From Torpedo marmorata (Eukaryota), in assembly GCA_977017645.1 (NCBI GenBank), contig OZ360219.1, forward strand, positions 179,552,001-179,616,000: a stretch of DNA of 64,000 nt. Reading direction: 5' to 3'. Positions 7,351-29,889 of the stretch are shown here, piece after piece. The position numbers and the translations under genes were made by a program. The first letter of the stretch is position 1, and each line of letters opens with the position of its first letter. Below the pieces are notes generated by a model that saw only the letters and a list, made by a program, of their open reading frames with translations, ran no database searches and was not told the origin of the DNA.

Positions 7351-7548
7351 GCCCTTTCTCGGTCCCCTTCGGCCTGGGGAGCTTTAGGTTGCATGTCTTG
7401 ACAAATGCCATACCTTCGTACAGTTTGCTCAATATCCATATCCAATAATAGTCCTGGCACCCCACAATAAACAACCTTCTTCAATAGTTATTTCATTCCT
7501 TCGGATATAGTAAGGTTTAAGGTCTGCCGAAATAGTGTCCCCTTCTGG

Positions 7549-10030
7549 ACTAGATGTAGGGTGCTACCTGGATGATATCATTATCACAGGACGAAACGAT
7601 ACAGAACATTTAACAAACCTGGAAAAAGTCCTAACACGACTACAACAAGCGAATGTCCGTCTGCGTCAAGACAAATGTGTATTTATGGTGCCCTCAGTAA
7701 CGTATTTAGGATTTACCATTAACAAGGAAGGCGTACAAATGAATGCAGCAGGTACTGAAGCCGTCAGAAAAGCACCTTGTCCAACCAGCAAAGCGGAGTT
7801 ACAATCGTTTTTGGGGTTAGTCAACCATTATCGAAAACACATTCCAGACATGTCTACTTGGTGCAACCCATTGAACCAGTTACTAAGAAAAGATCAAAAA
7901 TGGTACTGGAGTACAAAAGCAAATGATGCCTTTAACAAGTTAAAAAAACTATTAACTACGAGCAATAATATACTGGTCCACTACGATCCTAACAGAGAAG
8001 TAACCTTGGCGGTAGATGCCTCACCGGTGGGTCTAGGAGCAGTACTGTCACAAATAACAGAGAAAGGAGAACAACCAGTGGCGTATGCATCTCGATCCTT
8101 GACGGCTTGTGAACGCAATTATGCACAGTTAGAAAAGGAAGGACTAGCCATAATATTTGGAATCAAAAGATTCCACCAGTATTTATATGGAAGGAAATTC
8201 ACATTAGTAACGGACAACAAACCACTCAGTTTTATTTTGGGACCGAGAAAGGGCATTCCAGTATTGGCGGCAACCAGAATCCAGAGATGGGCAATAATGC
8301 TCGCCGCTTACGATTATGAGTTGAAACATAAACCAGCAACACAAAATGGACATGCCGATGCCTTGTCACGCTTACCTCTACCGGAAACGGGTCAAATGGA
8401 AGAGATAGTTCAATGGACATCAGAAGCCACAGCGATTAACCAAGAACAGCTTCGCCATCTGCCCATTACAGCCAAAATAATCAGTAAAGAAGTAAGAAAT
8501 GAACCCACACTGGCCAAGGTTTTGTATTTTACATTAAATGGATGGCCAGAAGGGGACACTATTTCGGCAGACCTTAAACCTTACTATATCCGAAGGAATG
8601 AAATAACTATTGAAGAAGGTTGTTTATTGTGGGGTGCCAGGACTATTATTCCCAGGAAATGGCAAAAGGACATATTGGCAGAACTTCATGATAACCATCC
8701 GGGAATAGTCCGCATGAAAGCGCTAGCCTGAATGCATGTTTGGTGGCCATCCATGGATATGGATATTGAGCAAACTGTACGAAGGTGTGGCATTTGTCAG
8801 GACATGCAACCTAAAGCTCCCCAGGCCGAAGCAAATCCATGGAAATGGCCGTCTCGACTATGGCACAGAATTCATGTAGATTTTGCAGGTCCATTTATGG
8901 GGGAGAATTTCTTGATTGTGGTTGACGCACACTCCAAATGGCCAGTGGTATCACAGATGCGTACAACAACAACCATCCAAACAATTGAAAGATTAAGAAC
9001 TATGTTTGCATCATATGGATTGCCAGTGGAATTGGTATCAGACAATGGTCCTCAGTTTACTTCGGATGTGTTTAAAATGTTCATGCGTAACAATGGTATA
9101 CGCCATGTACTTTCAGCACCGTACCACCCAAGTACTAATGGAGAAGCGGAGCGTTTTGTGCGAACATTTAAAAACGCAATGAAAGCAGGAAAATCGCTTA
9201 ACTTGTCGTGGAATCATAGAATAGCAAATTTCCTTGCAGGATATAGAAATACACCTCATTCAACAACTAAAAGAACGCCAGCAGAATTAATGTTTGGTCG
9301 AAATATTCGAACGTGGCTATCCGCAGTGCATCCGGATATCAGCGGTCGTATTGAACACGACACCTCACCAACTAAACCAACCCGATCTCTGGAAGTGGGT
9401 GAAAGAGTGTTGGCAAGAGATTACAGGAATAATAAGGAAACATGGATAAGAGGTGTTATCATTAAGAAGCTAAGCCCTTGCTCATATGCAATACAAGTAG
9501 AGAATAACATATGGAAACGACATATTGACCAACTGAGAGCAGTTGAAGATCCAATAATGACATTTCCCACAGATGAGCCGAAGAATTTGCCATTTTGGGT
9601 TAATGACGATGATGCTGATCTAGAAAGACAGACTAATGACGATGATGCTGATCTAGAAAGACAGACTCCAGATTCCAGTTTCCACTTTGAAGAAGATATT
9701 ACGGCAGAAAAGGCAAAGAGCCCAGAAAAGACAAAGAGTCCAGAAAAGGCAAAGAGTCCAGAAAAGGCAAAGAGTCCAGAAAAGACAAAGAGTCCAGAAA
9801 AGGCAAAGAGCCCAGAAAAGACAAAGAGTCCAGAAAAGGCAAAGAGTCCAGAAAAGGCAAAGAGTCCAGAAAAGACGAAGAGTCCAGAAAAGACGAAGAG
9901 TCCAGAAAAGACCAAGAGTCCAGAAAAGACAAAGAGTCCATTGGTTCCGACGGCTGTAGGGGATCCACCCCTAAGAAGATCACACCGTCAACGACGTCCG
10001 CCGGAACATTTGAGAGACTATGTACCCTGA
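7549..10030 (+). pseudogene. pol: Gypsy pol remnant (RT from CYLDD onward, RNaseH, integrase, repetitive C-terminal tail); single in-frame TGA at 8729-8731
   Basis: YLDD; DASPVGLGAVL and YAQLEKEGL; HPGIVRMK...CGIC; HVDFAGP...SDNGPQF...YHPSTNGEAER. ORFs 7535-8731 and 8732-10030 are contiguous in one frame (likely CGA>TGA). Confidence 0.95.
9707..9940 (+). repeat. 13 x 18-bp coding tandem repeat, EK(A/T)KSP, in the integrase tail
   Basis: Unit gaaaag(g/a)caaagagtcca; units 1-5 recur as 6-10 (AGC codon variant in units 1 and 6). Confidence 0.97.
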
Positions 10031-10869: not shown

Positions 10870-11214
10870 GAGGAATAAGGAGATTTTCCCACAGTCTACC
10901 TACCACCCTGCACACAGCATCTTCCAGCTACTCCTGTCGGGAAAGAGATACAGGAGGATCAGAGCCAGAACCACCAGGCTGAGAAGCAGCTTCTTTCCAC
11001 GGGCAGAGAGACTGCTGAACGACTGAAGAACTGCTCATACAAACCCTCCATGACTCTGCTATTTATTTACCAATAAGATTTATTTATTTAATATTTGTAT
11101 ATACATACTGTGCATATGTATCGTTTGTCTGTATGTGTGTTATGTCTGTATGTGTTTTTGCAGTGTTTTACACCGAGAACCAGACAATGCTGTTTTATCG
11201 GGTTGTACATGTAC
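10870..11214 (+). mobile_element. Rex1/Babar LINE 3' end; its tail resumes at about 18099-18135 after the BEL insertion
   Basis: HSIFQLLLSGKRYRRIRARTTRLRSSFFPRAERLLN; 3' UTR matches 49940-50160. Confidence 0.8.
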
Positions 11215-11790
11215 TGTAGTGACTTCAATCCAACAAATAGTCACTTGGAGGCCAGGTGAGATATTTGTTCTTGACACGTTTCAATTAATTTACTAACAAG
11301 TCCAATAGGTTCAAAAAACTATATTTACACACGATGACTTGTAGCAATCTTCAATGACTTAAATATCTTCTTTAAACGAAATTTAAACAATTCTTGATAA
11401 CGATGTTTAATAAATTCCTTTAAACGATTCCTTTAACATTCACTTAAACATCCTTTAAATGGTTCCTTTAAACGTCTTTAAATGGTCGATGAAAGATATA
11501 ACCATCTCACTCACCCTCCTCTGTTGCCATATTCTAATACAACCTCTCCTCCCCCCGACTCGCGCATGCTCTAACTCGCATGCTCCACCGCGCATACTAC
11601 ACCGCGCATACTTCACCGCGCATACTGCCGTCTCTTCCCAACTGCGCATGCTCCAGCCACTTCCAACTGCGCATGCGCCCGTCAGCACTCCCGCGCATGC
11701 GCAGAGCACTAAATAGGCCCAGCACGGCCTCCTCCGAAACCCGCTGAGACCATCGGAGCGCCGCGATTAAGGTAAGTAACCAAGCTTACA
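11215..11790 (-). repeat. 3' LTR of BEL element
   Basis: TGTAGTGAC...AAGCTTACA; adjacent minus-strand PPT-like TAGGGGCTGC; homologous to 16416-16436 plus 17508-18093. Confidence 0.93.
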
Positions 11791-12014
11791 GCAGCCCCTA
11801 ATTATTATAATTAGACACAATGTCTTAAATAATAATTACACAATCAATTACAAATAACAATAACCATATAACATTCAAACAATATATAAATCTTCTTTCT
11901 TCTTTCTTCATAAGACCAGAGTTTACCATAACTCTGAATCAACAAAAGTCTGTAACCTGTGAAGTATACAACAACAAATAAAGTCAGTTTGTATTTATCA
12001 AAGTTCCTTCGTCT

Positions 12015-12180
12015 CCAACAGAAGGCAGACCTTGTTAATAGGTCTATTTAGAAAGCCGGTCTTAGTTTTAATTCGAACTTGACGCACAAGTCCTCTTTTG
12101 TCCTGAATAGTCTCAATAATTTTTCCAAGTAACCAGGAGTTTCGAGGAGCTGAATCGTCCATAATAATTACAATGTCTCC
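12015..12180 (-). pseudogene. BEL integrase C-terminal remnant (DUF5641-like)
   Basis: Manual translation: GDIVIIMDDSAPRNSWLLGKIIETIQDKRGLVRQVRIKTKTGFLNRPINKVCLLLE. Confidence 0.85.
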
Positions 12181-12233
12181 TCAAAGTTCTTTTATCTCCA
12201 GAATCTTTGAGTTGAAACGTCAACCAGTAAACC

Positions 12234-12845
12234 TCAAACCTTCCTCAGACAAAATAGATACAGTTTTTCTTCAGCATGTCGTTTCACTTTATTCCTTTCT
12301 TCAGTATTCCACTTCTTATGTGAAGAATTTAAACTCTTAGAACTAGAATTTGAATATTTATCTGATCCTCTTGATTTTAATAAACAAGTCTCCTTAACCA
12401 CTCTGGTTGCTATTGTCTTTTCCAGCAATTCCAAATCCAATTTTGCAACTTTCAATTCAGTCTTAGTTCCTTCCGAGAAATTAATAACTTGATCTGAAGT
12501 GAAAATATCATGTGATACATTGATATTTCTATTGTCAACCCTGCTGTGGTAAACTTGAAATGTTTGAATTTCTTCATATTGCTTGTTACATTTCTGCAAT
12601 GCAATATCACATTCTTTCTGCATTGTTAGTAGCTGAACATTCAATTTACATTCTTGATTGTTTTCTATAATCAACTGTTTTGTGTTATTAACCAATAACT
12701 TGTTCTCTTTCAAAATATTAATCTCTTCCTCCAACATTTTACATTTTGATAATGCTGAATCTCTTTCTTCAATAACTGTATTTATTTCTTCAGCAGTCAT
12801 TCCTTTCTTCCGCCTTTGACTTTGAGAATTTTAAATACAATTAAA
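12234..12845 (-). pseudogene. Coiled-coil coding segment inside BEL; 12543-12845 resembles vertebrate MIPOL1 (captured fragment)
   Basis: MTAEEINTVIEERDSALSKCKMLEEE...NN..QLIIENNQE...LL.MQ...EEIQTFQVYHS is collinear with MIPOL1 as recalled (TAEEM..LIEERDAALSKCKRLEQE...ENNQERALK..LL.MQ...EEIQTLRVYYS). Confidence 0.72.
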
Positions 12846-13172
12846 TCTTTCTGTTTACTGTTTTCATGATTATCTAATATTTCCAATTCTCCTTTCAACA
12901 TTTTGTTCTCTGCATTCAATTGCAGTAAATTATCATTCACATTCTTCTTTATTCCATCAGCACAATTTCCTGTGTTCTCCAGTTTTACATCTCATGCAAC
13001 ATTTCTTCATTGATTTTGTCTGTTGTAACCTCTGAACTACAAAATCTACTTTCAGATTTGTTCTCAGTCACTTGTTTTATTCTTGCCTCTGATTCAATTA
13101 CACATGAATAATCAATAGTATTATTTTAACATCTTCTAATACTTCATTTTCATCCATTTCTGATGAAAATAA

Positions 13173-15968
13173 TTATTTCAATGTTGTTTTAAATACTTTT
13201 GATTTATTTTCACATTGATCTATTTTCTTTTCTTCAAAAGTAACTTTCTTATTCACAGTCTTTTGCTCTTCCCTTAACTCATCAACTTTCACAGCCGAAA
13301 TCCTGTTAATATTTATCACTAACTGTTCCTTAGCAATATCATTATTTCTTTCTAATGGTCCATTGATTGTCCAACCAAGCTTGGTTCTAAAAGCGTAAGG
13401 TCCATTCCCTCTACTCCGTATTACTTCTAGTGGTTCCAAAACCTTTGGCACATCTGAACCAATCAGCATTTCTATCTCAGAGTTAACTTCAGGTAGACAA
13501 ACATTTTTCAGATAAGACCACCATTTAATATCATTTGGATGAGGAATGTTTCCTTCATGCACAGGCATAGTCTTCTGAGTCTATAAACTTGGAAGATCAC
13601 AAATTTCTTTTGTCATACAATCCAGCAACCTCTAAGCCTGAAACAATGCTGGTTTCAACTACCTTTTCTTGTCCCATGGTTTTCAACATAATTCTGGACC
13701 TTCTTCCTTGAATATTAAGTTTGTTCATTAGACCTTCCGTGCAAAAAGATGCAGTGCTGCCTGGGTCTAGAAATGCATATGTATATACTGTTGCATCCCC
13801 TTTCTTGGTCTTGACTTGTACAGGCACTATTGAAAGTTTGCAGTTATCCACACCGGCCCCGGTAAGACCACTTGCCTGAACCGAGGCTATAACATTGTTT
13901 TCCGATGTTTCCTTTGTTTCTGTTTGCTCCTTTTCCAATTCCTTGTTTCTTTGATGGATATGCAACATTCTAGGATGTTTCAACTTGCATATGTTACAAT
14001 TAAGTCGCTTCTTGCAGTTTTTACTGATATGCCCTTTACACAAACAACTAAAACATATTCCATTTTCCTTTAAAAAAGCGATCTTCTCATTATGTTCCTT
14101 CTTTTCCAACCGTAAACACATTTCTAAAGCATGTCCACCTTTACAGAACAAACAACTCTTCTCATTAGGCAAACTTTCCTTTTCCTTATTTACTTTGTCC
14201 TTTTCTTTATTTATAACTGACACATTAGTAGCAAAAGTACTCCTTTTCAATTTCGGACTAGGCTGTGAGTTAGACCTCCTTACATCTTTGCCCATTGGTC
14301 TCTGGTATTTCCATATATTGGATCTGTTTCAATGTACACCTGTCGTTCAAGAAAATTTACCAAGTCCTTTAAATTAGTTCTTCGACTGTAATTTTCTTGT
14401 ATATCACAAGCCAAATTTCTCCATCTATCCCACAACTTGTAAGGTAATTTTTCTAAGATGATTTGCATATTACCAGGCACGTCAAGCTCACGAATATTAT
14501 CGATATCTTCCATGGCATTACAACATCCTCTTAAAAATAGAGTATATGCTTGTAGAGCCTTTACATCATTCTGTTTTATTGATGTCCATTTAAGAGCTTT
14601 ATCCATATAAGCTAAAGCAATTCGATGCTTGTTGCCAAAATGTTGTTCTAGTAAAAGCCTTAGCTCTGTCTAATCCTCTTTCTGAGGACATATGTTGACA
14701 ACTCTTTACAAGTTCTTTTGGATGTCCCTTTGTGAACATTTCCAAATAATAAAGACATTCATCATGATCTTGGCATTTATTTTCAATATTGCGTTTGAAA
14801 GATCTCATGAACGATTGGTACTGAAGTGGATCACCATCAAAAGTTTGTATCTCTTTCTTGGGTAAAGAAGAGAGAGTCTGTAACTGATTCAATGATGTAG
14901 CAATTTCATTTTGTCTTCCTTTGTTACAGGTAATGTATCTGGAAACCTCACTGGTGTAGTTTCTCCCATATTTCTGATACTTGACTCAAATGACAAGGGA
15001 GCTGCATCGTTTGACCGAACCCAAGATGCAGCTTTGTCTTCAGATGTTACCACTGGTACATGTGACTCGATACCACTATGCTCTTGAAAGATTTGTCCTT
15101 GTATTTGCAAGTCTTGTACCCTTGGTACTAAAATATCTACACTTTTGGTTGGTTTATTTTCCTGTGACTCTTATTTTAAATATGACCTTTTATTATCAGA
15201 TACTTTAGATCAAGCACCAAATACCATTGAGCCTTCTAGTACCTCTTTTTTTGCCTTGGCAATAGTAATGTTTGCTTCCAGCTCCTGCAGCTCCTTTCTC
15301 TGCCTTAGCTGCTCCTTCTCTTGCCTTAGCTGCTCCTAGTTCTGCCTTAGCTGTTGCCATAGCTGCTCCTCGAGCTGCTCCTCCTTTTGCCTCAGCTGCT
15401 CCTCCTGTTGTTCTAAAATATGTTTATCCTTAAACGTTTTTTGTTGCGCAAGAAGAGTGGCCAAGTTAACTTCAATCTTTGTATGTGACGATGCAGAACT
15501 TGAAGTACGAGAAACTCTGGAGCTCAAACCAGAACTTTGTTTGCTTCTCCTGCTTTCAGCATTTGAGACACTGTCACATGCTTGTATTTCATCCTGCAGG
15601 TCAGATGTTATCTTTTTACTGACCTCTTTCTCCAATCCGAATTGTACATCCTTTGCATCTTCATCCTCTTTGTTTTCTTCATCATTTGATGACACAATTT
15701 CAGCCATTTCCACGTTGCTGTCTTCATGTTCATTCGTTGTCTTTTGCAATGAGTTTGCAATTTCTTCATTCCCATCAACCGAAGCCGTTTGTTCTTCCAT
15801 TGCCAGCTTCAGCCTTTCAATGAGAACCCTTTTATTTCCACTTGTATCTAGTTTCTGTCGCTTCAATTCTTCTTTAAGATCCACAACCTTCATGTCTTCA
15901 ATACGTTGGTCCTCAACAGCAACATCAGCTGCCGCTGCGTCAGCTGCTGCTGCAGCCATTTTACTCAT
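13173..15968 (-). pseudogene. gag: BEL gag-protease, broken by stops and frameshifts; N-terminal SAP domain at 15798-15902
   Basis: ORFs 15336-15968, 14599-14892, 14280-14606, 13597-14295 and 13173-13568 are collinear BEL gag/PR pieces; MKVVDLKEELKRQKLDTSGNKRVLIERL fits the SAP consensus. Confidence 0.9.
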
Positions 15969-16436
15969 CTTGTTCTACCGTCCTTCGAGCATACACAACA
16001 CTAGCCAAATCAACAGTCTCCAATGGACTAGAAGCAGCAAATCCAATCTGTGTTCAAACTTGTCAAAGATACACAGGAGTCCACAGACTTATACCTACCA
16101 CTTCAGATGACTGTAATGGGCTGCTATTCACAAACGAGTTTCCACCACAGCATCTGTCAATAATATCGCTGATTTTCAAGAAATGGTTTCTCCAACGTAT
16201 TTATAGGAAACTTTACTATACGATTTGAAGCTCTATATTCCTCTCTGGCTGTTACTCATGGCATATGGATGTGGATTACAAACTGCCACTAACTCGAGGC
16301 ATCTCCAAGATGTCCGCCATCTTATTTTAAATATCAGTCCAAAGCACAGAGATATTATTCTATCTTCTTTCCTTCAATTTTCTGTTCCAAACAATAATGT
16401 TTTCATTGACTAAAATATAGTGACTTCAATCCAACA

Positions 16437-17495
16437 AGACCAATCCAGTCCAGACCTTCTGAAATGTCTGCCTTCTTCCACAAATGTGGCTTCCCCTCCA
16501 CCACCATCAACTCAGCCCTCACTCACCTCCTCCATTTCCCGCTCATCTGCCCTGGCCCCCTCTGCCCCCAGACGCAACAAACATAGAATCCCCCTCATTC
16601 TCACCTACCACCCCAACAGCCTCCGCATCCAACACATTATCCGCCGGAATTTCCGACACATTTTTCCTTCTCCTCCCCTCTCGGCCTTCCGCAGAGACCC
16701 CTCCCTCCGCGATTCCCTCATGCACTCATCCCTCCCCACCCATCGCACCCCCGGCACCTTCCCCTGTGCCCGCAGGAGGTGCAACACCTGCGCCCACACC
16801 TCCCCCCTCACCACGGTCTGGGGCCCCAAACAGGCCTTTCAAGTGAAACTACACTTCACTTGTACATCCAGAGAACTTATTTACTACATCCGGTGCTCCC
16901 TTTGTGGCTTTCTCTACATCGGAGTGACCGATCGTAGATTGGGGGATCGCTTTGCTGAGTACCTCCTCTCTATCCGAAACAACAGCGACCTCCCAGTAGC
17001 CAGCCATTTCAATGCCGAGTCACACTCCCACACTCACATGTCTGTCCATGGCCTTATGTACTATCCCACCCAGACTACCCGCAAATTGGAGGAACAACAT
17101 CTCATTTTCCGTCTGGGCACTCTCCAGCCAGATGGCATTAACATTGACTTTTCTGCCTTCCACTAAACCTGCTTGTCTTTTCCTTCCCCTCCCCCCTCCT
17201 TCCTGTTTTTTTACACCCACCCAGCCATCCCTCCTCCCCCTCTTTGCTGCTGTCCCCTCCCTCCTTTCTCCACCTATCATCTCCTGCCTTTGCCACCCCC
17301 CCCTTCCCCCCCTCACTCTTTTGTTCGGACGCCTGCCGGCATTTTCTCATACTTTGATGAAGGGCTCAAGCCCGAAACGTCGGTTATGTATTTCTACCTT
17401 TGCTACATAAAAGACACTGTTTGACCTGCTGAGTTTCTCCAGCATTTGTGTTTTTTACTTCAACCACGGTGTCTACAGATTTTCGTGTTTTACTT
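16437..17495 (+). mobile_element. 5'-truncated Penelope (Neptune-type) copy: Cys linker, GIY-YIG and pLTR
   Basis: ORF 16420-17166 is highly similar to the C-terminus of 24511-28056; 12-bp TSD TTCAATCCAACA (16425-16436, 17496-17507). Confidence 0.94.
17348..17390 (+). ncRNA. Minimal hammerhead ribozyme-like motif in Penelope pLTR (also 10421-10460, 24327-24368, 28241-28282; minus-strand copies near 7040-7080 and 45115-45155)
   Basis: UUGAUGA-a-GGGC(ucaa)GCCC-GAAAC-GUC: core with C3>U, 4-bp stem II, palindromic ACGU; minimal hammerheads are known from PLEs. Confidence 0.65.
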
Positions 17496-18139
17496 TTCAA
17501 TCCAACATATAGTCACTTGGAGGCTAGGTGAGATACTTGTTCTTGACGCGTTTCAATTAATTTACTAACAAGTCCAATTGGTTCAAAATACTTTATTTAC
17601 ACACGATGAATTGTAGCAATCTTCAATGACTTAAATATCTTCTTTAAACAAAATATAAACAATTCTTGATAACAATGCTTAATAAATTCCTTTAAACGAT
17701 TCCTTTAACATTCATTTAAACGTCCTTTAAATGGTTCCTTTTAACGTCTTCAAACGGTCAATGAAAGATATAACCATCTCACTCACCCTCCTCTGTCGCC
17801 ATATTCTAATACAACCTCTCCTCCCCCCGATTCGCGCATGCTCCAACTCGCATGCTCCACCGCGCATACTCCACCGCGCATACTGCACCGCGCATACTTC
17901 ACCGCGCATACTGCCGTCACTTACCAACTGCGCATGCTCCAGCCACTTCCCCACTGCGCATGAGCCCGTCGGCACTCCCACGCATGCGCAGAGCACTAAA
18001 TAGGCCCAACACGGCCTACTAACTTCCGCGTCTCCTCCAAAACCCGCTGAGACCATCGGAGCGCCGCGATTAAGGTAAGTAACCAAGCCTACGGCTCTTA
18101 CATGTACAATTGAATGATAAATGAACTTAAACTAGAGTC

Positions 18140-21805: not shown

Positions 21806-24510
21806 TGCACTTATCAATAACCACCTTAGCTATTTTCCCAGATGTATCATTAGAATATCCATTGTGCTGGTCTCTGCTCTTCTCAAAACACAGCACAGGG
21901 TCAAAAATGATATCTGCTGTGACTAACAGTAACTTTGGTTCTTACAATTCTGATCTCTTCCTCCAGAGTGCAAATACATCAGGCTTCCCTCATTTACTCC
22001 ACTCCATTCATCTTTGAAAACCTTTCCAAAACATATTAATCTAACCCTCTATATCCAATTCTGTGTTCTCATTGTGAGGTACCGTGAAGTCCCTTCTGAA
22101 TTCAAGGCACCACATTGGTGTTCTTATCAAAGAGGATTTCTGTTCCCTTGAGACTTTCTGAAGTTTGCACTTTATGGAACTCCAACTGTAGCCTGTGGCA
22201 ACATAAATTCTAGATGGAGAAGTGAACCCCTGTCTCAGAATCCCATCAGTACCATTGACTACTGACCAATCAGAAATACAGAAATTGATCAGGAACTTCA
22301 GCTTCACTCTGGTTTCTCTTCTGAAAGTTGAACACCGTTACCAGATATTATCAACCCAAAACATATTTTCTCTCTGCAGCTGTTGCATGTCCTGCTGAGT
22401 ATTTTCTGTTTTTATTTTGGATTTTTGGCATCTACAGTTTTTTTGTCAGTTTTTATGTCAGTTAATGGTAAAAGGAAAGCGAGGGACAAAATTGGTCCCT
22501 TAGAGAATCAGAGCGGAAAACTGTGTGTGGAGCCTAGAGAAATGGGGGAGATATTGAACAGTTTCTTTTCTTTGGTATTCACCAAGGAGAAGGATATTGA
22601 GATATGCGAGATAAAAAGAGCAAATTGGGTAAATATGGAGAATATAGGGATTACGAAAGATGTAGTGTTAGGGCTTTTGAGGCATATAAAGGTGGATAAG
22701 TCTCCGGGACCCGACGGGATCTTCCCCAGGACCTTGAGAGAAGTAAGTGAAGAACTAGCAGAGGCTCTGACGGTGATTTTCCAAATGTCATTAGAGATGG
22801 GGATAGTGCTGGAGGATTGGCGTATTGCGCATGTGGTTCCGTTATTTAAAAAGGGTTCAAGGAGAAAGCCTGGCAATTATCGGCCTGTAAGTTTGACGTC
22901 TGTGGTAGGTAAATTAATGGAGAAAGTTCTCAGTGATAGTACTTATAAATATCTGGATAGACAGGGTCTGATCAGGAACTCTCAACACGGAGTTGTGAGC
23001 GAAAGGTCCTGTTTGACCAATCTGATTGAATTTTTTGAAGAGGTGACTAGGAATGTGGATGAGGGTAGCACAGTGGATGTTGTCTATATGGACTTCAGTA
23101 AGGCCTTCGATAAGGTTCCGCATGGAAGGTTAGTTAGGAAGGAGCAGTCTTTAGGTATAAATTCTGAGATAGTCAAATGGATTGAACATTGGCTGGAAGG
23201 GAGAGGCCAGAGAGTGGTAGTGGATAATTGTCTGTCAGGTTGGAGCCGGTGACCAGCGGTGTGCCTCAGGGATCTGTATTGGGCCCATTGTTGTTCGTTA
23301 TATATATCAATGATCTAGATGATGGGGTGGTAAACTGGATTAGTAAATATGCAGATGATACTAAGATAGGTGGAATAGTGGATAATGAAGAAGGTTTTCA
23401 AGGATTGCAGAGGGATTTGGGCTGCTTAGAAAAGTGGGCTGAAAAATGGCAGATGGAGTTTAATGCTGATAAGTGTGAGGTGCTTCATTTTGGTAAGAAG
23501 AATCAGAACAGGACATATGTAGTAAATGGGAGAGCATTGATGAATACAGAAGAGCAGAAAGATTTAGGAATAACGGTGCATCGTTCCCTGAAGGTGGAAA
23601 CTCATGTCAATAGGGTGGTGAAGACCACCAGACACATTTTTCCTTCTCCTCCCCTCTCGGCCTTCCGTAGGGACCGCTCCCTCCGTGATTCACTCGTGCA
23701 CTCGTCCCTCCCCACCCATCGCACCCCCGGAACCTTCCCCTGTGCCCGCAGGAGGTGCAACACCTGCGCCCACACCTCCCCCCTCACCACGGTCCAGGGC
23801 CCCAAACAGGCCTTCCAAGTGAAACTACACTTCACTTGTACATCCAGAGGACTTATTTACTGCATCCGGTGCTCCCTTTGTGGCTTTCTATACATTGGAG
23901 AGACCAGTCGTAGATTGGGAGACCGCTTTGCTGAGCACCTCCTCTCCGTCCGCAACAACAGCGACCTCCCAGTAGCCAACCATTTCAATTCTGGGTCACA
24001 CTCCCACACTCACATGTCTGTCCATGGCCTCATGTACTATCCCACCCAGACTACCCGCAAATTGGAGGAACAACATCTCATATTCCGTCTCGGCACTCTC
24101 CAGCCAGATGGAATTAACATTGACTTTTCTGCTTTCCACTAAACCTGCTTGTTGTTCCCTTCCCCTCCCCCTCACCTGTCCTTCCTGTTTTTTTCCACCC
24201 AACCAGCCATCCCTCCTCCCCCTCTTTGCTGCTGTCCCCTCCCTCCTTTCTCCACCTATTATCTCCTGCCTTTCCCACCCCCCTTCCCCCCTCACTCCTT
24301 TGTTCGGACGTCTGCCGGCATTTTCTCATACTTTGAAGAAGGGCTCAAGCCTGAAACGTCGGTTATGTATTTCTACCTTTGCTACATAAAAGACACTGTT
24401 TGACCTGCTGAGTTCTCCAGCTTTTGTGTTTTTTACTTCAACCACGGTGTCTACAGATTTTCGTGTTTACTTTTGAATTCTACAACAACTCTGTGAAAAC
24501 TCTTTGAGGG

Positions 24511-27500
24511 ATGCCTACCCTGAAGAAGTTCGCCTTTGCTCTCCGAAGGGAGTTCTGTGGGATTCTCTCTCACTGCTCCCCATCTGCAACCCCTGCTGCT
24601 CTCAAGCTCTACGACCATGTACTCACCCAGACTCGATTCCACAGCCACGTTGCCTTCCTTGCTACTTGCCTCCGCCGTCATCTTGTGCCTCGTGGTTTCC
24701 AGCTTCGATTCCAGGCCTCGCAGTTTGGCCCCCGCAAAGATCTCAGGTACCTCCACAGCATCGACTGCTGCTCTCTCCGCTTCTCCCAAAGAATCCTCCG
24801 CACCACCCTCACCTCGATGCGGAGATACCAGCGGCAACTCGCCCTCTCCCTGCCACAGCTCCAGACCTCGCTAGCCATGGCCTGCAGCGGACCCCTCCTA
24901 TACTACATCCGCCGCCGGATCCACGCGTTCAACCGCCGGCTCTACACCTACCTGGCGTCCATCAAGAACCGTAAGCTTGCCTCCCTTGAAACTGCAGCCG
25001 CTGCGACCCTCCACGTGGATCCCCATCTCGGCCCCGGCCGCCTGCTCTCCGGAGCTCCCAACGCCGCATCCGCCGACCCAATCCCTGGTCCCAGCCTCCG
25101 ACTCACCGGAGCTCCCCACGCCGCAGCCGCCGACCCGAACCTGGACCCCGGCCGCGACTTACCCGAGCTTCCAACGCGACGGCTGCCGACCCGACCCTGG
25201 ACCCCAGCCACCGACTCAACGGAGCTCCCAACGCCGCAGCCGCCGACCCGATCCCTGGTCCCGGCAGCCGACTCACCGGAGCTCCCAACGCGATGGCTGC
25301 CGACCCGACCCTGGGCGCCGGACGCCGACTCACCGAAGCTCCCAACGCCGCAGCCGCCTGCTCCTACCCGCAACCCGGGCACCGACACGACGGTACTCCC
25401 GACGCTACGGCCGCCAACCCCAGCCCGGACCCCGAGCCTCTACTCACCAGAGTTCCCAATGCCTCCACCGCCGACTCCCGACACAGACTGTTACCTGCTG
25501 GAGCCTCCCACGCTGACTGCCACTGGAGTCCTCATCTCGCAACAAGATCCCACTTACCTATCCCCCTCACTACTCCTTCCTTCTCCTCCCACACCTCTCC
25601 CTACTCCACCCCCATCTCCCCCTCTCTGCCCCACTCTCCTCCCCAACCCTCAGACCTCATCCCTTCCCTTCCCTCCATCCCCCCCCTCTCTCTGGCTACC
25701 CTCCCTACCCCCCTCTCCCACCCTCCCACCTCCCCTACCCCCCACCTCCCCCCTCCGACCCCCCCTCCCCCTCCCTCCAACCTCCCCCACCCTCCACATC
25801 CCCCCTCTGACCTCCCCAACTCTCCCCCTCCCCCCAACACCCTCCACAACACCGATCCCCACTCTAACCCCTGCTTGGTTTTTACCATCCCCTCCGACCT
25901 TCCCCTCTCTGAGACGGAGCGCTCCGTCCTCAGTAGAGGCCTCACCTTCGTCCCCCTCCGCCCACACCTCAACGAATTCCGCGCACGCCATGATGCCGAA
26001 CTCTTCCTCCGTCGCCTCCGCCTCCGTGCTCACTTCCATGACCGTGATTCTCCACCCCCCCACCCAAGACCCTTTCTCCAGCTTCAAGCCTTCTTCCTCT
26101 TCCTGGACACCCTGCCCTGGCCAGCTGCCCGCTCTGGACCTTTTTATTTCCAACTGCCGCCGAGACATCAACCGTCTCAACTTCACCACCCCCCTCTCGT
26201 ATTCCAACCTCACCTCCTCAGAACGCTCTGCCCTCCACTCTCTCCGCAACAATCCCAACCTCACCATCAAACCTGCAGACAAGGGCGGTGCGGTTGTGGT
26301 CTGGCGCACTGACCTCTACCTTGCCGAGGTCAGTCGACAACTCTCAGACACCTCCTCCTACCGACCCCTCCCACAGGACCCCACCACAGCACATCAAGCC
26401 ACTGTCTCCAACACCATCTCCGACCTCATCACCTACGGTCACCTCCCCTCCACGGCCACCAACCTCATTCTCCCCCACCCCCGCACTGCCCGTTTCTACC
26501 TTCTACCCAAGATACACAAACCCAACCATCCGGGCAGACCCATTGTTTCTGCCTGCTCCTGCCCCACCGAACTAGTTTCATCTTACCTTGACTCCATCTT
26601 TTCTCCCCTGGTCCAATCCCTCCCCACCTACATCCGCGACACCTCACATGCCCTCCATCTCCTCGATGACTTCAGATTCCCTGAACCGGACCGCATCATC
26701 TTCACCATGGATGTCCAATCCCTTTATACCTCTATCCCCCACACAGAAGGTCTGAAAGCACTTCGCTTCTTCCTGGACCAAAGACCCGACCAGTCACCCT
26801 CTACCACCACTCTCCTCCGCCTGGCAGAACTTGTCCTTACTCTCAATAACTCCTCCTTCAACTCATCCCACTTCCTCCAAATCAAAGGAGTAGCCATGGG
26901 TACCCGCATGGGTCCCAGCTACGCCTGCCTGTTTGTGGGCTTTGTGGAGCAATCCATGCTGCAAGCCTACACAGGCAAGACCCCTCATCTCTTCCTTCGG
27001 TATATCGACGACTACATCGGGGCTGCCTCATGCACCCACGATGAGCTTGTCAACTTCATCCACTTCGCATCCAACTTTCACCACGATCTCAAACTCACCT
27101 GGTCCATCTCCGATAACACTCTCCCCTTCCTGGATCTCTCTGTCTCCATCTCGGGAGACAAGCTTTCCACCGACATTTACTACAAACCCTCCAACTCCCA
27201 CAACTATCTGGACTACACATCCTCACACCCTGTCCCCTGCAAGGACTCCATCCCCTTCTCTCAATTTCTCTGCCTCCGCCGCATCTGTTCCCAAGATGAG
27301 GTGTTCCACTCCAGATCTTCTGAAATGTCTGCCTTTTTCCACAAACGTGGCTTCCCCTCCACCACCATCAACTCAGCCCTCACCCGCATCTCCTCCATTT
27401 CCCGCTCATCTGCCCTGGCCCCCTCTGCCCCCAGACGCAACAAACATAGAATACCCCTCATCCACACCTACCACCCCACCAGCCTCCGCATCCAACACAT

Positions 27501-28056
27501 TATCCGCCGGAATTTCCGGCACTTGCTGCAGGATCCCACCACCAGACACATTTTTCCTTCTCCTCCCCTCTCGGCCTTCCGTAGGGACCGCTCCCTCCGT
27601 GATTCACTCGTGCACTCGTCCCTCCCCACCCATCGCACCCCCGGAACCTTCCCCTGTGCCCGCAGGAGGTGCAACACCTGCGCCCACACCTCCCCCCTCA
27701 CCACGGTCCAGGGCCCCAAACAGGCCTTTCAAGTGAAACTACACTTCACTTGTACATCCAGAGGACTTATTTACTGCATCCGGTGCTCCCTTTGTGGCTT
27801 TCTATACATTGGAGAGACTGGTCGTAGATTGGGAGACCGCTTTGCTGAGCACCTCCTCTCCGTCCGCAACAACAGCGACCTCCCAGTAGCCAACCATTTC
27901 AATTCTGGGTCACACTCCCACACTCACATGTCTGTCCATGGCCTCATGTACTATCCCACCCAGACTACCCGCAAATTGGAGGAACAACATCTCATATTCC
28001 GTCTCGGCACTCTCCAGCCAGATGGAATTAACATTGACTTTTCTGCTTTCCACTAA
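24511..28056 (+). CDS. Penelope RT and GIY-YIG endonuclease polyprotein (1181 aa; about 25160-26060 is read in a shifted frame)
   Basis: KPADKGG, LPKIHK...GRPIVS, TMDVQSLYT, GVAMG, RYIDD, LPFLD, CARRRCNTC linker, LIYCIRC...YIGETGR...RFAEH. Confidence 0.9.
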   Translation: MPTLKKFAFALRREFCGILSHCSPSATPAALKLYDHVLTQTRFHSHVAFLATCLRRHLVPRGFQLRFQASQFGPRKDLRYLHSIDCCSLRFSQRILRTTLTSMRRYQRQLALSLPQLQTSLAMACSGPLLYYIRRRIHAFNRRLYTYLASIKNRKLASLETAAAATLHVDPHLGPGRLLSGAPNAASADPIPGPSLRLTGAPHAAAADPNLDPGRDLPELPTRRLPTRPWTPATDSTELPTPQPPTRSLVPAADSPELPTRWLPTRPWAPDADSPKLPTPQPPAPTRNPGTDTTVLPTLRPPTPARTPSLYSPEFPMPPPPTPDTDCYLLEPPTLTATGVLISQQDPTYLSPSLLLPSPPTPLPTPPPSPPLCPTLLPNPQTSSLPFPPSPPSLWLPSLPPSPTLPPPLPPTSPLRPPLPLPPTSPTLHIPPLTSPTLPLPPTPSTTPIPTLTPAWFLPSPPTFPSLRRSAPSSVEASPSSPSAHTSTNSAHAMMPNSSSVASASVLTSMTVILHPPTQDPFSSFKPSSSSWTPCPGQLPALDLFISNCRRDINRLNFTTPLSYSNLTSSERSALHSLRNNPNLTIKPADKGGAVVVWRTDLYLAEVSRQLSDTSSYRPLPQDPTTAHQATVSNTISDLITYGHLPSTATNLILPHPRTARFYLLPKIHKPNHPGRPIVSACSCPTELVSSYLDSIFSPLVQSLPTYIRDTSHALHLLDDFRFPEPDRIIFTMDVQSLYTSIPHTEGLKALRFFLDQRPDQSPSTTTLLRLAELVLTLNNSSFNSSHFLQIKGVAMGTRMGPSYACLFVGFVEQSMLQAYTGKTPHLFLRYIDDYIGAASCTHDELVNFIHFASNFHHDLKLTWSISDNTLPFLDLSVSISGDKLSTDIYYKPSNSHNYLDYTSSHPVPCKDSIPFSQFLCLRRICSQDEVFHSRSSEMSAFFHKRGFPSTTINSALTRISSISRSSALAPSAPRRNKHRIPLIHTYHPTSLRIQHIIRRNFRHLLQDPTTRHIFPSPPLSAFRRDRSLRDSLVHSSLPTHRTPGTFPCARRRCNTCAHTSPLTTVQGPKQAFQVKLHFTCTSRGLIYCIRCSLCGFLYIGETGRRLGDRFAEHLLSVRNNSDLPVANHFNSGSHSHTHMSVHGLMYYPTQTTRKLEEQHLIFRLGTLQPDGINIDFSAFH
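25051..25500 (+). repeat. 57-bp GC-rich coding tandem repeat (about 8 decaying units) in the Penelope N-terminal region
   Basis: Anchors at 25051, 25108, 25164, 25221, 25278, 25335; the second unit is 56 bp. Confidence 0.85.
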
Positions 28057-29889
28057 ACCTGCTTGTTGTTCCCTTCCCCTCCCCCTCACCTGTCCTTCCT
28101 GTTTTTTTCCACTCAACCAGCCATCCCTCCTCCCCCTCTTTGCTGCTATCCCCTCCCTCCTTTCTCCACCTATTATCTCCTGCCTTTCCCACCCCCCTTC
28201 CCCCCTCACTCCTTTGTTCGGACGTCTGCCGGCATTTTCTCATACTTTGAAGAAGGGCTCAAGCCTGAAACGTCGGTTATGTATTTCTACCTTTGCTACA
28301 TAAAAGACACTGTTTGACCTGCTGAGTTTTCCAGCTTTTGTGTTTTTTACTTCAACGACGGTGTCTACAGATTTTCGTGTTTACTTTTAGTATGCTGGCC
28401 TTTATTAATCATTGCATAGAATATAGGAGTTGGGAAGTGATGTTGAGATTATATAAGGCTTTGGTGCGGCCTAATTTAGAGTTCTGTGTGCAGTTCTGGT
28501 CGCCAAATTATAGGAAGGATATCAACAGAGTGGAGAGAGTGCAGAGAAGGTTTACCAGAATGTTACCTGGGTTTAAGAATCTAGAGTACAAGGAGAGATT
28601 GAGCATATTAGGTCTTTATTCTTTGGAGCGTAGAAGGTTGAGAGGGGATTTGATAGAGGTATTTAAAATTATGAAAGGGATAGACAGAGTGGATGTGGAT
28701 AGACTATTTCCATTAAGAATAGGAGAGATTGAAACAAGAGGACATGAGCTAAGAGTTAAGGAGCAGAGGTTTAGAGGTAACATGAGGGGGAACTTCTTTA
28801 CTCAGAGAGTGGTAGCGGTGTGGAATGAGCTTCCGGGAGAAGTAGTGGCGGCAGAGTCAATTTTATTATTTAAGAAAAAGTTGGACAAGTATATGGATGA
28901 GAAGGAAGTGGAGGGTTATGGGCAGGGTGCAGGTAGGTGGGACTAGATAGGAATGTTTGGTTCGGTGCGGACTGGAAGGGCCTAATGGCCTGTTTCCGTG
29001 CTGTAATTGTTATATGGTTATATGGTTATTGTGTTGCACATGTCCTCATGGACAATTCTGCTTCGCTGAAACAGCCCAAATGATCTTGTTACCTACAACC
29101 AGACAATTTGTGAAAGGTAACTTTTCTCAGGACCAAAACCTTGTGTATACATCAATGTTATCACAAGTTTAGCTGCATATGGTGAATCTTGGAAGGTAAA
29201 TTCAACTCCAGGAGCTATCAGCACCCATCCTTATTCGATCTTCAGTCAGTGGCCACATGATAGGTTAATTTGAAAACCTTGGTCCATTTTCATCTTCCTA
29301 ATCCAGGATACTGACACCACTACTATAATCCAAGGCAAAATAATGACACAGAATGTGGGATGTTTGTGGCCTGTGCATTTCAATTGCACTACTTTGCGTC
29401 AAGAATTTGATTCTCAAAGGAGCATAAATGGTGATAAAAGTCAGCTTCTGATCTCATGTGACATTTTAATATTCTCATTTGAACTGCAGTAGCAGTGTTT
29501 AAAATCTTCTTTGAAGAAACTTGCAGTGGTTCTACAGTTATTCAGTATTACAGGCTAAGGACAAGGAACAGCAGCATCAACAAAGGAAGATGCACAGAAC
29601 ACAAAGATCCCAAGATCTAAAACTGGCAAATGTGAGATGGGATAGACGGTGGGGGGGACAAGTGGAAGAGTTTGCAGAAGCCCTTGGCCCAGTACTGTGT
29701 CTTTAATTGTAATACGACATGGTTATTCCACACTGAAACACAAGTAATGCCATGGAAGTTACAATCTATTACTGCAGAATATGCATGACGGCTATCTGAT
29801 TTCTTGTAATCCTCTTCCTAATGATCTCCAAGTAGCAGAGCCAAAAAGGCTGGTGGGTTGTTTGCAACAATTTGACGGCATTCATTAAG

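Follow-up and report, generated by a model that had tools for sequence, protein, structure and literature searches.

The DNA considered here, a 64,000-nucleotide stretch of the Torpedo marmorata genome hereafter called the window, raises the question of how a piece of a host gene came to stand where a mobile element should encode its reverse transcriptase (RT), and of which kind of RNA was copied to bring it there. The initial annotation had reported a MIPOL1-like fragment at 12543..12845, captured from spliced mRNA by template switching and then diverged under an A-rich bias. The analysis presented below leads to a broader reading, namely that the element is likely a BEL/Pao chimera that acquired pieces of spliced BRCA1, of spliced Elongin A (ELOA) and of back-spliced MIPOL1 by template switching, is copied in trans and carries this cargo as an in-frame filler.

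The minus-strand peptide is indeed encoded at this place, which is that of the missing RT, and the frameshift noticed near 12815 corresponds to a 1-nt deletion between 12814 and 12813 relative to the host exon. When the open reading frame 12234-12830 was searched against proteins of 348-2000 aa (1085 candidates, cut-off E<=0.001), MIPOL1 was the significant best match: the best of the 92 matches, from Narcine bancroftii, reaches E 3.8e-34 with 60% identity, all 92 share the same two Pfam families, and they are named MIPOL1 apart from a few that are unnamed or 'hypothetical'. The window frame itself gave no match in Pfam. A generic coiled-coil match was rejected, since all 92 matches are of the MIPOL1 type and the DNA aligns with single exons of the ray's own MIPOL1 gene at 83-87% identity. 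At the protein level, most MIPOL1 exons of the host share 86-96% identity with Narcine and its large BRCA1 exon 84%, which would fit a ray close to the electric rays. The Narcine protein matches the window twice, by residues ~460-553 and then directly by residues ~295-376. The interval first proposed was too short, as MIPOL1 sequence runs from 12848 to 12399, its part from 12543 to 12399 coming from exons located further upstream. Two more host genes adjoining the fragment and a family of ~24,000 copies had also been missed.

Architecture of the element and its host cargo

The element extends on the minus strand from 18102 to 11215, with paired LTRs and a 5-bp target-site duplication, GTACA (18103..18107 on the 5' side, 11210..11214 on the 3' side). 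The 3' LTR (11215..11790) is 576 bp long and has TG...CA ends. The 5' LTR (16416..18102; 616 bp), 94.6% identical to it over 576 aligned columns, ends in TA, like several copies of the groups B and C described below, and is interrupted by a truncated GIY-YIG element inserted later on the plus strand (16437..17495; weak GIY-YIG match, E 0.02) with a 12-bp duplication. This insertion, which we take to be Penelope-like, is matched at 91-93% by 23631-24484 and 27305-28388. Between 24508 and 28056 lies an open frame of 1,182 codons that combines RT-like and GIY-YIG-like parts and is presumably Penelope-like as well; truncated 3' ends of the element bearing it form the insertion at 16437-17495 and others within the window. 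The window also includes a Gypsy-like pol remnant (7514-10030; RT, RNase H, integrase) ending with a KSPEK-type repeat (DUF1388, E 1.7e-16), a perfect 105-bp inverted repeat (7444-7548/8546-8650) and, at 1-2900, a 25-bp satellite of more than 100 units.

The 5' part of the internal region is a BEL/Pao gag-protease backbone (13263..15965, minus strand) that comprises a SAP domain (E 6.9e-10), a DUF1759 gag, zinc knuckles and an aspartic protease. In the window copy it is interrupted by stops and frameshifts, and its DUF1759 (E 0.029) and Asp_protease (E 0.023) matches are both under the cut-off. It is colinear with, and 83-88% identical in DNA to, that of RT-bearing BEL/Pao copies, which carry PF05380 (Pao RNase H) and also begin with a SAP domain. 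As intact relatives start with the same domain, a fourth host capture corresponding to the SAP domain is unsupported. The SAP domain of the intact family (window 15807-15902), which we take to resemble that of SAFB/SLTM, is possibly an older host capture.

The RT, the RNase H and the integrase core are absent, the integrase being reduced to its last ~60 codons located after the stop of the chimeric frame (11998..12181, minus strand); none of 20 young copies contains any RT-integrase sequence. In place of the RT, the RNase H and most of the integrase stand three host pieces in the order BRCA1-MIPOL1-ELOA, and one reading frame passes through the gag-protease and all three of them. Among 14 RT-bearing relatives, mostly picked for long frames, eight have a single frame of more than 2,000 codons. 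Judging from its sequence, the element is a non-autonomous BEL/Pao LTR retrotransposon derivative, in which intron-less host RNA replaces the internal ORF between two LTRs, as in an LTR-mediated retrocopy.

All three pieces are on the minus strand and derive from spliced RNA. The BRCA1 piece (12849..13268; 8/8 matches BRCA1, best E 5.3e-71) retains one exon joint in the window copy and three in fuller old copies, the host gene having four corresponding exons on contig C61; it matched no protein of 326-1040 aa, BRCA1 being recovered in a longer size range. The ELOA piece (12203..12399), shortened by in-frame deletions, matches PF06881 (E 6.7e-16) in an old copy and PDB 8oev (E 7.5e-37). Its donor is a gene with five host exons on contig C41, to which the window copy is 82-87% identical. 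A second intron-containing Elongin A-like gene (C25:175318134-175337048) is 78% identical to the cargo, against 92-98% for the C41 donor.

The MIPOL1 piece was aligned with 320 kb of the host gene (contig C40, 64321501-64641500), in which seven exons labelled b to h measure 136, 106, 130, 34, 171, 108 and 95 nt (780 nt in all, with a stop-free frame). Introns of 29 and 78 kb are absent between the exons of the window copy, which indicates capture at the RNA level. Part of exon f followed by g and h, spliced in normal order, forms 12544..12848, and parts of b and c form 12399..12543, where an 81-nt in-frame deletion is common to the lineage. At 12543..12544, the donor of the late exon h is joined directly to the acceptor of exon b, which lies 206 kb upstream in the host gene. 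Exon h ends with TACTACAG before gt and exon b begins with CAGGGCTG after ag; the joint reads TACTACAG-CAGGGCTG in the least-diverged element copies (230 exact matches in the genome, control 0) and TACCACAG-CAGGGTTG in the window copy (12544/12543). A search of the ray's own genome found this reversed exon order at dozens of loci.

Spread of the family and maintenance of its reading frame

Pattern searches of the 6.22-Gb assembly gave 3,803 occurrences of the exact 18-letter joint of the window type and 23,728 of a wider 20-letter joint pattern with at most one mismatch (control 279), which recovers 19/19 window-like loci and the four copies present in the host gene. The RT-site pattern of the helper family, i.e. 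the RT-bearing relatives, occurs 2,669 times (control 0), a ratio of 9 to 1 that is rough as the two patterns differ in degeneracy. The MIPOL1 piece was found in none of 20 evenly picked 10-kb stretches, where 0.8 would be expected, so that the four copies in 320 kb of host gene overstate the density; an estimate drawn from that region was dropped in favour of the whole-genome count. The family is composed of at least 23,700 dispersed copies that belong to a single lineage and have LTR pairs and target duplications of their own. Its expansion as a non-autonomous BEL/Pao family is almost certain, and its share of the genome would reach up to about 2% provided that the copies are mostly full length.

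Copies were sampled non-randomly, as the best matches to the MIPOL1 protein (group A), the best matches to the window (group B) and the first listed on one contig (group C). Their identity to the host MIPOL1 exons is 95.3%, 85.0% and 81.8% for A, B and C, respectively (19, 17 and 20 copies), and the cargo tree is a ladder leading from the host exons to A, then to B (including the window copy) and then to C, A and C each forming one branch with 100% support. LTR-pair identity is 90.6-95.0% in A (9 pairs) and 92.2-97.8% in B (11 copies), and at least 98.9% in 6 of the 12 pairs found in C, reaching 100% in the youngest. The youngest insertions carry the most diverged cargo, which is what repeated copying of one lineage by RT would produce. 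In the protease tree (10 of 51 rows omitted because of short matches; one A row actually a nested B-type copy), A adjoins an old RT-bearing copy and the young intact family branches from within B, which would reflect that the chimera still exchanges sequence with the intact family and makes use of it.

Several copies deserve mention on their own account. Four lie in introns of the parent MIPOL1 gene (C40:64321501-64641500), three of them in sense orientation, and one has LTRs that are 99.7% identical. A recent tandem array (C1:1498502-1518377) shows five joint matches, one every 4,964 bp, in units that are 99.8-99.9% identical. One young copy of type B (L074) sits within an old A-type copy or next to it. 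At L081:6576-7695, the joint is repeated three times through internal tandem repeats whose other ends are off splice sites, and an origin of this triplet as a rolling-circle product was rejected on that ground.

The A-rich drift initially proposed is real as a shift towards A/T (110 shared changes from G/C to A/T, 31 in the reverse direction); it consists mostly of a loss of C and G, the A content rising only from 40.4 to 42.7%. Private changes of B-type copies show, on the sense strand, an excess of G>A over C>T in the MIPOL1 piece (17 vs 1) and in the protease region (32 vs 16), small numbers that may reflect editing or an RT bias.

During this divergence, the reading frame was maintained across the module joints, in 16/17, 23/23, 19/19, 21/22, 8/8, 6/7 and 19/19 copies; three single-copy joints of other kinds were scored separately, and two of them are out of frame. 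All nine indels present in at least five copies are multiples of three, versus 20 of 84 private ones, some of the former being possibly host-side changes. Two frameshifting indels occur in three copies each, and in group C the nine indels found in at least three copies are all in frame. The 155 shared changes in the cargo of the B lineage produced no codon that is a stop in at least 30% of the copies, for 10.0 expected under the same spectrum. Group C has a single shared stop codon, present in 79% of its copies and located close to the end of the ELOA piece. In 6 of 20 young copies the joint is spanned by open frames of 1,060-1,348 codons; the window copy itself is interrupted by several stops and frameshifts. 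The gag-protease has a dN/dS of 0.28-0.64 against one intact relative, a value that is not assignable to the branch of the chimera.

No purifying selection on the captured protein was seen in the B lineage, which displays 112 non-synonymous and 42 synonymous changes for 37.2 synonymous ones expected, i.e. a synonymous count at the neutral level. Taken together with the lack of shared stops and the in-frame indels, this implies that the frame matters and that the protein sequence does not; selection would, with high probability, act on the open frame only. The cargo could instead have been kept for a function of the chimeric protein, for example as a particle-assembly coiled-coil (the MIPOL1 part would presumably be one) or as a decoy against host defence, the origin of the element being as proposed here. 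A frame open over the whole ladder and the rough 9 to 1 excess of the chimera over the RT site would fit such a function, which we regard as improbable given that amino-acid changes accumulate at the neutral rate, that successive deletions (24-291 nt) keep reducing the cargo and that B and C have lost the conserved Elongin A domain.

Selection for an open frame with neutral cargo may have its cause in a need of the element RNA for translation in cis, whether for packaging by its own Gag or for escape from nonsense-mediated decay, an explanation that we favour with moderate confidence.

Origin of the reversed joint

Back-splicing is the common source of joints between the end of an exon and the start of an upstream one. 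Since the joint of h to b falls at exact donor and acceptor sites, the template of the MIPOL1 piece is likely a 780-nt circular RNA rather than a linear mRNA, and a circular origin appears very likely from the sequence evidence as a whole. The initial proposal of capture from spliced mRNA stands as regards the RNA level, and probably fails as regards a linear template, as the back-splice joint scrambles the exon order. Old copies contain 587 nt of the circle (75%), which run from the end of f through g, h, b and c into the first bases of d, hence six exons with four normal joints and the back-splice joint. In the 37 copies compared, only exons of the circle are present, and the next exon outside was found once in the genome. 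The acceptor of exon b is a tandem one, used here at its first AG, and the CAG that follows the joint is its optional part. Introns flanking the circle share 47 inverted-repeat matches versus 56 same-strand ones.

Contigs of the sequencing run X12, taken by guess to be RNA, depart from the copy exactly at the joint, either into the exon after h or from the exon before b, and linear MIPOL1 mRNA therefore has the normal exon order. X12 and the host gene disagree at 2 of 30 letters. Other X12 contigs, also of guessed RNA status, bridge the joint; they resemble element copies and depart from the copy in about 8-11% of positions. Both observations make it likely that the family is present in at least one other species.

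A joint produced by splicing within linear RNA, either because two pre-mRNAs were trans-spliced or because exons b to h were once duplicated in tandem and the duplication was then lost, would look the same in DNA as a back-spliced circle, and the copies hold less than one full turn (587/780 nt). Nevertheless, this origin is highly improbable: in the 320 kb of host gene from one assembly, all seven exons are single, in normal order and bounded by AG/GT, without any tandem duplication, and four MIPOL1 proteins of cartilaginous-fish type contain no repeat. Furthermore, a circular Mipol1 RNA is listed, its exons not being given, in mouse macrophages (PMC9888537). A backward jump of the RT on linear MIPOL1 mRNA that met two splice sites by chance is extremely unlikely, even though the element went through several switches, the two mRNA positions at the joint have three letters in common and non-colinear joints can arise by other routes (Dong et al., PMC4897178), because only 9 of 18,811 backward jumps with at least three shared letters (0.05%), and 27 of all 862,851 possible jumps, hit an exact donor and acceptor, because the other cargo ends (MIPOL1, BRCA1 and ELOA) all fall inside exons, and because an optional CAG of a tandem acceptor after the joint is what splicing would leave.

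Starting from a circular template, the origin of the family could be described as follows. Back-splicing of MIPOL1 would give the 780-nt circle of exons b to h, and the RT would switch template inside the particle between the element RNA and host RNAs packaged with it, the circle among them. The resulting chimera would then be copied with the RT and integrase of intact relatives, with which its backbone would be exchanged. The cargo would act as a filler, selection keeping the frame open to near the native stop and not the host protein sequence. For BRCA1 and ELOA, circles were rejected, as both pieces have the normal exon order and no reversed joint. The switch between BRCA1 and MIPOL1 shows only two exact shared letters, and two other switches contain 11-20 unassigned filler letters, in a comparison made with no donor element of matching age.

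Implications and comparison with known systems

The first paper to describe genomic copies of circular RNAs left open by which route they arise. Here the back-spliced piece lies inside an LTR element whose two switch points, donor gene and helper family can be read together with a dated series of copies, which points to capture in LTR-element particles. A neutral protein in a protected frame amounts to a natural experiment that makes the cis-translation of LTR RNAs testable. The family is also a fossil record of a specific MIPOL1 splice isoform, likely present in the germ line. It constitutes a hazard as well, since in these fishes DNA copies of the back-splice joint and of BRCA1 and ELOA exons will lead circRNA calling and gene annotation astray. 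A further-reaching scenario, which we consider rather unlikely, is that a packaged circRNA now belongs to one of the dominant mobile families of the genome, that this family makes a Gag-protease-BRCA1-circMIPOL1-Elongin A fusion, and that small RNAs targeting these 24,000 copies act on the BRCA1, ELOA and MIPOL1 messages of the host too; if this were true, silencing the element would cost the host.

A search limited to the open literature (supplements and repeat databases apart) recovered no account of this element family; several known systems resemble it in part. BEL/Pao elements share with it the LTRs, the target duplication, the DUF1759 gag and the DUF1758 protease (PMC3118150) but, unlike them, it is devoid of RT, RNase H and integrase core. 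The largest BEL/Pao family reported in the part of the 2011 survey that bears on copy numbers has 397 copies (PMC3118150). As a lead only, A-rich element sequence has been linked to SAP-domain SAFB proteins in the relevant section of another study (PMC10901741). Maize Bs1 is likewise an LTR element with pieces of three host genes and a hybrid reading frame; it differs as a plant element that forms a new chimeric gene, for which the passages concerned mention no back-spliced piece (PMC13317346, PMC5131818), whereas amino acids drift neutrally in the ray element.

LTR-mediated retrocopies, in which spliced host RNA replaces part of the internal ORF, can involve several genes and go through further non-autonomous rounds, and one mosquito case uses a BEL element, according to the sections of Tan et al. 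(2016, PMC5131818) that treat them. Partial spliced host RNA in the ORF and several parent genes are therefore common to both systems. The terms 'circular' and 'circRNA' are absent from the main text of that paper, whose supplements may hold scrambled cases. According to the same sections, such retrocopies occur in few copies and the frame is lost in 14 of 21 older ones, whereas the frame is kept over 15-20% divergence in the very large family described here.

The closest precedent that we found is provided by the circRNA-derived pseudogenes of mouse circRFWD2, with 33 high-confidence copies, LTR-rich flanks and a mechanism given as unknown (Dong et al. 2016, PMC4897178). Like the ray family, these pseudogenes display a reversed exon-exon joint, no poly(A) tail and LTR sequence in their flanks. 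In contrast, the ray family has about 23,700 copies, ~700 times more, and was active recently, and its back-spliced piece is located inside a complete LTR element, where it replaces pol, in frame and together with pieces of two more host genes.
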